Origin: Sphyrna mokarran
Taxonomy: Eukaryota
Assembly (NCBI GenBank): GCA_024679065.1
Contig: JAGIQG010000009.1
Location: 91,388,001 to 91,452,000 of the forward strand
Length of the DNA stretch: 64,000 bases
Reading direction: 5' to 3'
Numbering within the stretch: position 1 is the stretch's first letter; the number at the start of each line of letters is the position of its first letter. The notes beneath the pieces were generated by a model, which saw nothing but the letters and a program-made list of their open reading frames with translations, was not told where the DNA came from and did not search any database. The position numbers were made by a program, and so were the translations under genes. This document shows positions 8,821-48,147 of the stretch, in pieces.

Positions 8821-10335
8821 GATTCAAATAGAACAATGGGCTGGGAGAATCCTGGCCCTTGTCTCTCTGGAGTGGAGCAGACAGGAGGGGAGGTAGTTGA
8901 AGACCAGCATTTTTCAGCAGCTGCCCCTTTGTATAAAAACCATTACTGATACATTGACTGGTATAAAGCAGGTCCATCTCAATCCTTCCAGTCACGTGGA
9001 AGATGTTGCAAAATTCCATAACAAATACAAAGACGAGTTATATTGAACTGGGATGGCAGCAACACAAATAACCCCAAAAGAATCACTCCTGCCAGTTCCA
9101 AGTACAGAAACAGTGCAAGTCCATGAGACAGCAGCTGGATCTCGAATGGGTGCAGCCTCTGTTTACCAGATTCAGGGTTCTGGGAGATGCCTCATTGGTG
9201 GATGCCAGCTTTGAGTTCCCCTATAGGCTCTTGTTGATGTCTCCCAGCACACTGATCAGTGACCAGTGTGATCACTGATTAATGTCTCTGGCATTAGAGG
9301 GGTCAGCGTATGGGAAGATGCAGAGTGATACCTCTTGCGAAGTGAATTTTTTTTAATCTCCCCTCAATGCCCCCTCCACAACTCTTTGTGACAGAGACCC
9401 TCAGGCACAGAGAGGGGGATTTTTGATATTTAATTTGGAGGAATTGTTTGTGATCTCTTATTTAATAAAAATTCTATTTCTAACTTAGAAATTGTGTTCT
9501 GTTTGAGGTTGTTGTTGTACTTCTATTTGAGCTCAGAGTCATTCTAAATAAATCAAATCATTTTATTCACATAAACCATTTTAAGATGATGACAGTTTAG
9601 AAAGTAGAAAAATAGCTCAGAAATGCAAATGTTACGAAATGTTTCAGACCAATTTGCTGAGGTTGACATTGTTCAGTAATAACTCTCACAAACTTGTGCA
9701 ATGTCTCCTTGTTGCTGTAATAAAATCTCCCTTGTTTTGCTTTCCAGCCACACTGTCCTTTTGTGCATTTCCTGGGAGAAGGAGAGGGATTTTTCTCCCT
9801 CTCAATATCCAAACCTATCAGTTCCCCCCTCAGCTGCTCTCCAGCCTCCCTGACAACTGCAGTCGGTCTTTCCTCAGCTTCTTCCTGAGACCTGGCTCCA
9901 GGGATATCCATGTTGGGATCCTCCATTTCATCCACTTCTGGAACAATCTGCTATGTGGGATGAAGGATCAGTGCTTCCTGTGGGGAAAGTTGGGCGATGT
10001 GTAACCGAGCCCCACAATCCCCAACACTGTGACAGGAGAGTCGAGCAAAGTGACCCCTGACCTGTGCAGACGCTGGCAACAGGAATTCAACAACCTGATT
10101 GTCTCCTTCAGTACTCGACATGTTAAAGTGCTTTGTTTCTTCCGTGATATACTTTTAATGATTTTTAAAATCAGATCAAACCTGTTTGAATCTTTTAAAT
10201 CAAATCAGAGAACTTGTCAAACGTCAGATATATTGAAGATATAAAAGGTTATATTGAAAATCTTTCAGAAAGTGTGGCATATCGACCAAATGTGAGTGTA
10301 TTTCATTCCCAACAATCTGTCCCTCAGTCACTCAC

Positions 10336-10367
10336 TGGAGCTGTTGTGTACGTCCCACTTGGTGAAT
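10336..10367 (-). CDS. Gene B exon 6, cytoplasmic (DSPSGTYTTAP)
   Basis: ctgcAG acceptor and CCA|GTGAGT donor; carries the class I cytoplasmic Tyr motif; identical in gene C. If unspliced it reads on to VSD-stop at 10324. Confidence 0.8.
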
Positions 10368-10772
10368 CTGCAGAAGTGAAATAAATGTCAGTTAGAATGG
10401 GGAATAATCCATTCTCAGAGAGTGAGAACACAACAAGTGTGAGGGAATGGAGATTGTGTGAGAAATACTCATCCTCACACTCCCCTCCATCCTTACACTT
10501 TATGGAGATCCTGTAGATCTCTTCCATTCCATCCATATTCAGTAGGTGAGGATGTGATTGTGTGCGGTGGCTTTAATGATCAATACTATACGTGTCTGGG
10601 CTGATCACACGAGAAAAGATCAGACAAGGAACAAGATGTGTTTATACGTGCGTATCTGTGTGTAGGAATTAAATCAGTTCATTCAACACAGTGTCCTGTA
10701 TTCCCAGTACTGGAGATTTCCCACACTCACTCTGTCCCCTCAGTTCTACATTCCCCTCTCTCTCATTCTTAC

Positions 10773-10889
10773 CTCTCCATTGTCTTTTCCAGATGATTAT
10801 TCCGATTATCCCAAATATAACAGCCAGTGTAGGGATCACTGCTCCGATTATAATTCCAAGATTTTGTTTCCCATTGTTTTCCGGGATTT
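10773..10889 (-). CDS. Gene B exon 5, connecting peptide and transmembrane segment
   Basis: EIPENNGKQNLGIIIGAVIPTLAVIFGIIGIIIWKRQWR; AG/GT boundaries, 117 nt, phase 1. Confidence 0.9.
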
Positions 10890-11627
10890 CTGAAACACAT
10901 TTGAATTATATGAAGATTGTCTCTCTGTTCCCAGATCCATTCCCAGTTCTCTGTTCATTCTCGGGACAATTGTAACTGAAGCTGCCCATTTGGGAATTGA
11001 TGGGATTGGCTGAGATGCTGGTTTTACACTCGCTCCATTTCACTCCCTAGTGAAGTGATGAAAAATTCCCATTGATGTTGGTGTCAAAGCTGTGTTATTC
11101 CAATCCCACAGGATACTTTCCCAGCCGGTTTAGTTCTAATTCTCCCCAATGTCTATGTGTCCTGCCTTTGTTCAATCCCCAGGGTTACACTGAACATCCC
11201 AGGAGGCAGAATCACTGATAGTTTTCACATCAAACTTTAAAGGGATGAAGAATAAACTGATTGCAGGAAACTGGACTGAGCTGAGAATGAGGAAATCCAC
11301 AGATAAACAGAGCAAATGCTTCAAAAGAAGCACTTGGTCCAATCCAGCAGCAGGACTTAGTCCTAAATCACTACACTGAGCCCACCATGGTCAACACATG
11401 GAATAGTGAAAGAATCCAACTCAAAGATTTCTCAAATGTCCAGAGATTGAGTTCCAGAGACTTAGACAAGTATCAGCTGGTCAAAGAGAGACAGGATGGA
11501 TTTGTGAAGGGAATCTCATGTCTGACACATCACAGTAAATGCGATGAGGAGCTCTGTAGCAGGTGGATAAGGGAGTGTCTACGGACCTGCAGGCAAGTAC
11601 ACACAGTACAGTTCAACAGTTCCTTAC

Positions 11628-11906
11628 CCCACTGATGGAGCTTGGGCTCTGCCAGGCTGCTGTGTTCAATTTGACAGGAGTATTGATCCTCATCCCCAGC
11701 ATTTATTTCAATCTCTTTCTGGATCTGATGTGTTCCATCGTGGTTCGGTCGAATCCCCGAGGATAGTGTCTCGGACATTACCTCTCCATTCCTTAACCAG
11801 GTCACCTTGATGTCTACAGGATAAAAGCCAGTAACCAGGCAGGAGAGAGTGAGGGGCTTGTACTGGCTATTACGCTCACTTCTGGCGATGAAGATTTCAG
11901 GCTGAA
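11628..11906 (-). CDS. Gene B exon 4, alpha3 (Ig C1-set)
   Basis: LTLSCLVTGFYPVDIKVTWLRNG...PNHDGTHQ...YSCQIEHSSL; 279 nt with canonical splice sites. Confidence 0.96.
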
Positions 11907-12023
11907 CTGTAATGGGAAAGGGTGAAAACACAAACAATAAACCCACACTGAATGGAATGGGGGAACGGTTTGATAAATCAGTGAAGTTAGAGCAGAACAT
12001 GGAGTCAAAACTGAAATCAATAC

Positions 12024-12299
12024 CTTTCCTTTTGAGCAATTCCTTTCCGACTTGTATATATTTCCTTAAGAGCCCGACGAGTTCTTCTTCCAATTGCCAT
12101 TTCCAGTGTTTGTTCCAGGATTGATCTGAATTCCATTTCTCTTTAGTCTTCACTGCGAAGTGATTGGATGCGACCCATCCCATTCTGTCTGGCTCTAAAC
12201 TAATATAGTCCTTTCCATCAAATCCAAACCGCATCGATCTCTTAATGGAGCCGTCTTCAGTGACTTCGACAGACCGAATCCATTGGAAAGTGTGAATTC
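12024..12299 (-). CDS. Gene B exon 3, alpha2 (no cysteines)
   Basis: GIHTFQWIRSVEVTEDGSIKRSMRFGFDGKDYISLEPDRMGWVASNHFAVKTKEKWNSDQSWNKHWKWQLEEELVGLLRKYIQVGKELLKRK; 276 nt, AG/GT. Confidence 0.95.
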
Positions 12300-46574: not shown

Positions 46575-46935
46575 CTGAAACACATTTGAATAATATGAGG
46601 ATTGTCTCTGTTCCCGGATCCATTCCCAGTTCTGTGTTCATTGGGGACAATTTGAACTGAAACCACCCCAGTCCAAATGGGATTGGTTGAAGCTTTGCTT
46701 TTACACTGGCCCCGTGGTGGATAAGGGAGTGTCTACGGATCTGCTCTGGATGGACTTCCAGAAGGTCATTGATAAAGTTCCACACAAGAGATTCTTGACA
46801 ATAATAAGAGTGTTTGGAATTGAAGGGAATCTTTGTCAGGGGTGAAAATTGGTTGGCAGGAGAAAGACAGGGAATGGAGAGAATGGGAATGTGCTCCCAT
46901 ACAAACACATGCACATATCCAGTACAGTTCCTTAC

Positions 46936-47214
46936 CCCACTGATGGAGCTTGGGCTCTGCCAGGCTGCTGTGTTCAATTTGACAGGAGTATTGATCCTCA
47001 TCCCCAGCATTTATTTCAATCTCTTTCTGGATCTGATGGCTCCCATCGTGGTTCGGTCGAATCCCCGAGGATAGTGTCTCAGACATTACCTCTCCGTTCC
47101 TTAACCAGTTCACCTCGATGTCTACAGGATAAAAGCCAGTAACCAGGCAGGAGAGAGTGAGGGGCTTGTACTGACTATTGGGCTCACTTCTGGAGATGAA
47201 GACTTCAGGCTGAA
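46936..47214 (-). CDS. Gene C exon 4, alpha3
   Basis: C1-set Ig motifs; 87/93 aa identical to gene B. Confidence 0.96.
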
Positions 47215-47331
47215 CTGTAATGGGAAAGGGTGAAAACACAAACAATAAACCCACACTGAATGCAATGGGGGAACGGTTTGATAAATCAGTGAAGTTAGAG
47301 CAGAACATGGACTTAAAACTGAAATCAATAC

Positions 47332-47607
47332 CTTTCCGTCCCAAATATTCCTTTCCAGCTTCCAAATATTTGTGTAAATGTTGAACAAATTGTCCCAGAA
47401 GATATTTTTCCCAGTAATTATTCCAGGATTGATCAGAATCCCATTTCTCTTTAGTCTTTACTGCGAAGTGATTGGATGCAACCCATCTCATTCTGTCTGG
47501 CTCTAAACTAATATAGTCCTTTCCATCAAATCCAAACTGCATCGATCTCGTAATGGAGCCGTCTTCAGTGACCTCGACAGACCGAGTCCATTGAAGAACG
47601 TGAATTC
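47332..47607 (-). CDS. Gene C exon 3, alpha2 (no cysteines)
   Basis: GIHVLQWTRSVEV...FGFDGKDYI...TKEKWDSDQSWNNYWEKYLLGQFVQHLHKYLEAGKEYLGRK; 276 nt. Confidence 0.95.
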
Positions 47608-47754
47608 CTGTCAAAAACCAAACTGGGATCAATAATCAATAGACAATCTTTTCAGTGGTGAAAGGGGATTTAGTCTGAGATAGAAATGGATGGAATCTTC
47701 CTGTGCCATCAGTAGCAGGAAGCTGAGTGGTGAGGTTATTAAATTAGATGGAGT

Positions 47755-47845
47755 CAGTGCTGGGAGATGGACAGAGCTCAGTGTCCCAGGGGTCAGTGCT
47801 GGGGGACTGAGCTCAGTGTCCCAGGGGTCAGTGAGCTCAGTGTAA
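47755..47845 (+). repeat. Short tandem repeat in intron 2 of gene C
   Basis: About 3 copies of gagctcagtgtcccaggggtcagtg. Confidence 0.8.
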
Positions 47846-47886
47846 GGTTATACATCAATACGCTGATTCTCTCTGCCTGTTCTTAC

Positions 47887-48147
47887 CGGATGTCTGGTTT
47901 GTGATCTTCTGCACTGTATTCAGATTCTCCTTTGCCATGTTGAAGTGTTTTTTTGCCTCGCCTGTGATATAATCCCAGAATTCAGAATTGAAATTTTCAG
48001 CCATGAACCTCTGCCGGGGAATGCAGCGATGGGTATTACTGTTACAATATCCTACTTGGACACCATTAACCATTGCAGTGTTTATCAACTCAGGAAAATC
48101 TTCTACTCCAGAGACAGCAGTGTATATCACTGTGTATGTGTTAGTGT
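47887..48147 (-). CDS. Gene C exon 2, alpha1
   Basis: DTNTYTVIYTAVSGVEDFPELINTAMVNGVQVGYCNSNTHRCIPRQRF...EFWDY...TNQTS(G); 261 nt, AG/GT. Confidence 0.94.

Follow-up and report, generated by a model that had tools for sequence, protein, structure and literature searches.

Why should two neighbouring genes be identical in some exons, nearly identical in some introns and barely alike in the segments between? The question is raised by a stretch of 64,000 nucleotides (nt) from the shark Sphyrna mokarran (contig JAGIQG010000009.1 of GenBank assembly GCA_024679065.1, positions 91,388,001 to 91,452,000 of the forward strand), hereafter the window, in whose numbering all positions are given. Self-comparison and translation revealed three class I genes of the major histocompatibility complex (MHC), A, B and C, and an orphan leader exon, D, on the minus strand. 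B and C are complete, each with six exons, canonical GT-AG junctions and an intact open reading frame (ORF), and of A only the leader and alpha1 exons lie inside the window, the remainder being beyond its edge. Our comparison hence covers two complete genes from a single haplotype.

An earlier note on this DNA, made from the letters alone, had described a mosaic of homogenised and hyper-divergent segments between positions 10260 and 48147, and ascribed it to gene conversion or exon shuffling acting together with selection for distinct alpha1 and alpha2-helix cassettes. All of its segment counts (leader, alpha1, alpha2, alpha3, exon 6 and introns 2, 3 and 5) were reproduced exactly, the range being too narrow in that it omits both leaders and gene A (Table 1).

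Segmental divergence between B and C

B and C are identical at all 52 nt of the leader and all 44 nt of the last exon, and share 87 of 93 amino acids (aa) in alpha3. In alpha1 they share 27 of 87 aa, compared to 46 of 87 for A and C and 31 of 87 for A and B. The alpha2 exon is itself divided, with 56 of the first 63 aa identical and 12 of the last 29. Identity is 97 % for intron 3 and 95 % for intron 5, while intron 2, which is 1035 nt long in B and 279 nt in C, gave a best local score of 27, the same as the highest of 200 shuffles. The 600 nt upstream of the genes are 90 % identical. Homology is limited to three blocks of 0.7–0.8 kb each (Table 1), and across the 11-kb first introns, intron 2, the middle of intron 4 and the flanks B and C align only via repeats; intron 4 and the transmembrane (TM) exon are also partly divergent.

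In the gap-free 672 nt that run from alpha2 through intron 3 into alpha3, 39 of the 67 mismatches fall inside 84 nt, a score equalled by none of 200 permutations, and the DNA on either side of this island is 93 % and 97 % identical. On an AlphaFold model of the Mustelus orthologue P0002, the island corresponds to the long alpha2 helix, with its borders at structural limits, and four strands together with the short alpha2 helix make up the conserved 5' part of alpha2. The earlier description of the conserved part as the groove floor is thus correct for the strands and must be widened to take in the short helix.

Synonymous divergence (dS) between B and C is far from uniform, at 1.08 in alpha1, 0.17 in 5' alpha2, 1.33 in the long alpha2 helix and 0.10 in alpha3, and Fisher tests confined to synonymous sites returned p values of 2e-8 and 1e-3. 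Because dS differs tenfold and introns 3 and 5 are so similar, the pattern is attributed to exchange and not to constraint on the protein. The ratio of nonsynonymous to synonymous divergence (dN/dS) for the pair is 0.52 in alpha1 and 0.41 in the helix, which indicates that the divergent segments are old rather than fast. The term hyper-divergent is therefore apt for the extent of the divergence and misleading as to its rate. Positive selection as its source was considered and rejected, as both ratios are below 1.

Relationships across shark orders

Homologues were collected using the alpha2-intron 3-alpha3 frame of B as query, which yielded 110 proteins out of 227 candidates. Other sharks are represented by predicted proteins only. 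Of the 110, 97 were aligned with A, B and C, and 13 weak hits from other lineages were excluded. After A, partial rows and one Heptranchias protein of another lineage had been dropped, B, C and 57 database proteins remained, giving 59 rows with all four segments complete. Trees of alpha3 were built with FastTree from the 59 rows and with IQ-TREE from 18, and the approximately unbiased (AU) tests used 18 rows picked by hand from the 59.

The alpha1 of B is 88 % identical to that of one Mustelus gene, 60–63 % identical to those of single Chiloscyllium, Heterodontus and Pristiophorus genes, and 31 % identical to that of C. The four genes from other genera form an alpha1 clade with B (ultrafast bootstrap, UFBoot, 100) and are referred to here as B-type; the alpha1 of A likewise matches genes in four other genera at 62–65 of 87 residues. 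The alpha3 segments of the window genes group with Carcharhiniformes, and the nearest alpha3 neighbour belongs to the same shark order in all 59 rows. Labels for shark order change four times on the alpha3 tree, the minimum for five groups, compared to 16 times on the alpha1 tree and a mean of about 29 after shuffling. Reciprocal AU tests rejected a B-type clade for alpha3 (p 7.8e-59) and a Carcharhiniformes clade for alpha1 (p 3.8e-6). When diagnostic sites were added up across five B-type genes, the ratio of orthologue-like to paralogue-like states was 106:7 in alpha1, 14:22 in 5' alpha2, 16:8 in the helix and 3:37 in alpha3, and the leaders carry species-specific residues common to B-type genes and their paralogues. 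A metagenome scan for genomic relatives produced 99 pattern matches, none of which was confirmed.

The mosaic itself, the synonymous and intronic signal that follows it and the incongruence of the segment trees demonstrate that B and C are of mosaic ancestry. The proposal that duplication age does not suffice and that the scaffold has been homogenised is hence upheld, with dS spanning 0.10 to 1.33 and the two AU tests excluding congruent trees.

The helix follows alpha1 less strictly. Helix identity tracks alpha1 type across orders (0.60 versus 0.48) and the Mantel correlation between alpha1 and helix is 0.37. In the Mustelus protein P0006, alpha1 groups with Stegostoma P0038 and the alpha2 helix, which resembles that of Stegostoma P0023, with genes of the P0023/P0016 type, and P0006 probably represents either a natural cassette swap or a chimeric gene model. 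Because of this recombinant appearance, and because the helix signal is absent in three of the five B-type genes, coupling between alpha1 and the helix is considered only a tendency.

Probable gene conversion and its alternatives

We consider it very probable that interlocus gene conversion, working in exon-centred patches and stopped by loss of homology, is responsible for the mosaic. B and C would be old paralogues in which repeated conversion among some ten tandem copies has homogenised the leader, alpha3, the short introns and the last exon, with alpha1 and the long alpha2 helix keeping lineage identities common to distant sharks. Conversion would act around exons, where homology survives, and halt at introns 1 and 2 and the middle of intron 4, where repeat insertions would have destroyed it, and alpha1 may now be too divergent and isolated for strand pairing. 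Conversions that overwrote the helix island would leave a helix ill-matched to the alpha1 facing it across the groove, and would be purged. Hypothetically, a shared alpha3 would let every copy keep working with a common beta2-microglobulin and co-receptor, and each groove would keep its own ligand or receptor.

The number of copies is known roughly. Four sequencing runs were compared with B, of which X1 is possibly the source of the assembly itself and X2 comes from another study and is RNA only by guess. Contigs of X1 match the unique parts of B with no differences at depths of 10.6–16.6, and shared parts of B occur in contigs at depths of 152–159. Raw reads of X23 cover alpha3 and intron 3 at 9–14x, versus 0.5–1.8x for alpha1 and unique intron 2, with just 1–3x for intron 5 and 2–4x for unique intron 4, so that the figure of about ten tandem copies, taken from contig and read depth, is a rough estimate.

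Several observations weigh against this account. Homogenisation is resolved at the level of the order and not the species, and the alpha3 tree of 18 rows places B, with weak support (72), beside its Mustelus orthologue. Among the 31 sites listed, B differs at 19 from a state common to C, the X1 majority and another species, and B and C agree against the other species at six; because B is private at these 19 sites, the last conversion into B appears not to be recent, and conversion into B would be slow or episodic. The AU test on 5' alpha2 is borderline (p 0.047), and that on the helix does not reject the B-type clade (p 0.46), but the helix tree contains no such clade; the orthologue signal of the helix is clear in B (8:0), with no excess in three of the five B-type genes. 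Chimeric gene models in other species could inflate the within-species similarity of alpha3, and the dN/dS values give no direct sign of positive selection.

The alternative that survives best accepts conversion and competes only at the selection step, proposing that both divergent segments escaped neutrally once divergence blocked pairing. For alpha1 it agrees with our preferred explanation, since a segment flanked by unalignable introns could have escaped conversion without selection, and the earlier claim that selection preserves the alpha1 cassette is accordingly not retained. Repeats that interrupt homology are described as ending conversion in PMC3924837, the middle of intron 4 has escaped too, and dN/dS is below 1. 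As an account of both segments it is possible, though we think it rather unlikely, as the island is just 84 nt long, free of gaps and embedded in 93 % and 97 % identical DNA, stops at structural borders and tracks alpha1 type across orders. From this geometry only, we infer with moderate confidence that selection maintains the helix island, and to that extent the earlier claim was a reasonable one.

Birth-and-death evolution with exon shuffling, in which unequal crossover swapped old cassettes of alpha1 and helix into recent whole-gene duplicates, appears improbable. Shuffling of alpha1 and alpha2 is known in teleost class I genes, which also have ancient alpha1 lineages (PMC6523485), and both the composition of P0006 and the low Mantel correlation are in its favour. 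Recent duplication, however, predicts that introns 1, 2 and 4 and the flanks should align, which they do not, and three blocks plus an island inside an exon could arise only through many crossovers, of which two would fall within exon 3 or at its end. As the breakpoints lie inside exon 3 and within about 12–170 nt of exon edges, patch-wise conversion is preferred, and of the two processes the earlier note had offered, shuffling is the one that fits less well.

We give very little credence to a history without exchange, in which old duplicates have leader, alpha3 and floor under strong purifying selection and a rapidly evolving groove, for although alpha3 is conserved between shark orders too (mean 0.85) and family-wide entropy declines from alpha1 to alpha3 (1.49, 0.92 and 0.36), such a history leaves unexplained the tenfold dS differences, the 95–97 % identical introns next to unalignable ones and the alpha3 and leader states fixed within species or orders across paralogues, and is rejected by the AU test on alpha3. 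It is just as improbable that the identical tracts are collapsed or cross-polished paralogues: shared parts do collapse into high-depth contigs in short-read assemblies and the joining of the parts of B was read piecewise, no single record covering the full gene, but collapse is argued against by the private variants of B in intron 5 and alpha3, which depart from the majority state of the family at 21 of the 31 sites listed, by an X1 contig that bridges intron 3 and the B helix with no differences, and by like architecture in independent assemblies of other sharks.

In X2 the alpha1 of B occurs without differences and runs on into exon 3, exactly 1035 nt between canonical ends being skipped, so that B is spliced, with the run taken as RNA by guess. 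X2 also carries C-type TM sequence, and a 1-nt deletion at 12090 in an X2 contig, 13 nt from the contig end, was treated as a paralogue edge effect. Intron 3 (in C, 47215–47331, minus strand) is in frame and free of stops in both genes, giving a continuous alpha2-alpha3 ORF; retention of this intron is unsupported, X2 depth being zero in the bin that covers it.

The class I cluster and its place among known systems

The exon order of leader, alpha1, alpha2, alpha3, TM and cytoplasmic exons, in phase 1, is that of an MHC class I heavy chain, and homologues of B and C carry PF00129 and PF07654. The best structural match to the P0002 model (predicted local distance difference test score, pLDDT, 80.8) is chicken BF2 (E 3e-28), and the fold search with this model named no lineage-specific structure. 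The best named homologues are shark class I-like proteins, that of Mustelus asterias first. Among the 110 hits, all named matches above 45 % identity are from sharks, chimaera matches reach about 30 %, and the search, which was word-limited, returned no ray. Complete paralogues number 2–11 per species in ten named species.

A shark nonclassical class I lineage, UEA, was reportedly described by Almeida et al. in 2021 and, to our knowledge, is limited to sharks, being found in neither rays nor chimaeras. Classical class Ia molecules anchor peptides through Y7, Y59, Y/R84, Y123, T143, K146, W147, Y159 and Y171 and have an alpha2 disulfide between C101 and C164. With positions read against HLA-A2 in S10 of PMC10751288, B keeps five of the nine anchoring residues and C six. 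Both lack C101 and C164; the cysteine at 101 is missing in all 59 rows and its partner at 164 is retained in five. On these residues B and C are not classical class Ia (UAA) genes. By eye, 59 of the 87 alpha1 residues of B match the nurse shark sequence UCA_NODE_26056 in S10, and the remaining S10 lineages are visibly far more distant. S10 has no entry named UEA and the closest reference is labelled UCA, which we take to be the lineage published as UEA, and the window genes thus likely belong to UEA. UEA is described as multicopy and MHC-linked (PMC10751288) and as an ancient expanded family (PMC12562908). The window genes, three genes and an orphan leader in 64 kb, have in common with it multiple tandem copies and the loss of invariant peptide-anchoring residues.

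Table 1. Coordinates of the class I exons, selected introns and B–C homology blocks in the window
Feature	Position	Strand	Remarks
Gene B exon 1 (leader, 52 nt)	25322..25373	-	Same sequence in A and C
Gene B exon 2 (alpha1)	13335..13595	-	Ancient trans-order B-type cassette; spliced to exon 3 in X2
Gene B intron 2 (1035 nt)	12300..13334	-	High-copy repeats inside; unalignable with C
Gene B exon 3 (alpha2)	12024..12299	-	
Gene B exon 3 divergence island (long alpha2 helix)	12030..12113	-	39 mismatches in 84 nt versus C
Gene B intron 3 (117 nt)	11907..12023	-	114/117 identical to C
Gene B exon 4 (alpha3)	11628..11906	-	Homogenised
Gene B exon 5 (TM)	10773..10889	-	
Gene B intron 5	10368..10772	-	386/405 identical to C
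Gene B exon 6, up to in-frame stop	10324..10367	-	Identical to C
Gene C exon 1 (leader)	59492..59543	-	
Gene C exon 2 (alpha1)	47887..48147	-	
Gene C exon 3 (alpha2)	47332..47607	-	Island at 47338-47421
Gene C exon 4 (alpha3)	46936..47214	-	
Gene C exon 5 (TM)	46473..46574	-	
Gene C exon 6	46023..46066	-	
Gene A exon 1 (leader)	3099..3150	-	
Gene A exon 2 (alpha1)	1..261	-	Other exons off the window
Orphan leader exon D (fourth)	60626..60677	-	Splice donor broken
Homology block 1 (upstream region, exon 1, intron 1 start)	25232..25987		C 59402-60161; 89.9 % over 769 nt
Homology block 2 (exon 3 to exon 4)	11616..12315		C 46924-47623; 90.3 % over 703 nt
Homology block 3 (intron 4 end to exon 6)	10265..11036		C 45966-46713; 87.0 % over 776 nt

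A tblastn search with all 110 homologues detected no additional class I exons in the window, and no non-MHC gene flanking the cluster was found in it. Leader D lies in a region (60538–60777, minus strand) that is 95 % identical to the exon 1 region of B, 1.1 kb upstream of the C leader; its donor GT is changed to CT, it has one Leu-to-Pro change, and it is likely a pseudo-exon. The region upstream of A is broken by about 2.2 kb (3437–5609) that include a tandem repeat (4350–5350), with an inverted copy at 5900–6730 and a short related array upstream of B (26171–26319). The start of intron 2 in B (13334–13310, minus strand) resembles a second copy of the codons for the C-terminal glycosylation site of alpha1, by chance or through a small duplication. 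In intron 4 (11562–11590 versus 46716–46744), B and C appear to retain opposite halves of an old long interspersed nuclear element (LINE) reverse-transcriptase relic, overlapping by 29 nt.

Both the process and the kind of gene family are already known, and the case is a clean new instance with resolution below the exon. We found no report of conversion within shark UEA in the literature, and the primary UEA paper and its supplements may anticipate sublineages. In the concerted evolution of HLA-E and H2-Qa1 (CD94L) described by Joly and Rouillon in 2006 (PMC1403747), class Ib orthology is seen in the binding region and masked by alpha3 and non-binding-site residues homogenised within species, and conversion tracts are bounded by groove residues. 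The shark case differs in that its depth is between orders, exchange is among class Ib paralogues, and the tract borders can be mapped from introns and from an island inside an exon. Conversion is likewise commoner in alpha3 of newt MHC class I genes, where concerted evolution blurs orthology (PMC12863176), but newt genes lack clear deep orthologues, which the shark alpha1 cassettes retain. In humans, the genes for the red and green opsins also have a short divergent coding island in homogenised flanks, orthologue-like in the island and paralogue-like in introns (PMC3924837), though there, unlike here, the selected sites are known.

Tentatively, the array may hide fixed, single-copy, order-spanning receptors-for-ligand, of which B would be one, conserved like HLA-E, MR1 and CD1. 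Conversion would then amount to a natural saturation scan, and the parts that could not be overwritten, alpha1 and the 84-nt helix of a groove without the alpha2 disulfide, might mark the surface that defines the ligand and an innate-like T-cell partner. Whole-gene or alpha3 trees misplace these shark genes, and only alpha1 and the long alpha2 helix reveal their orthologues in other orders. For studies of ligands and T cells in the oldest lineage of jawed vertebrates, the B-type and A-type class Ib genes are hence the most suitable candidates, and the pattern known from HLA-E and Qa1 is extended to cartilaginous fish.

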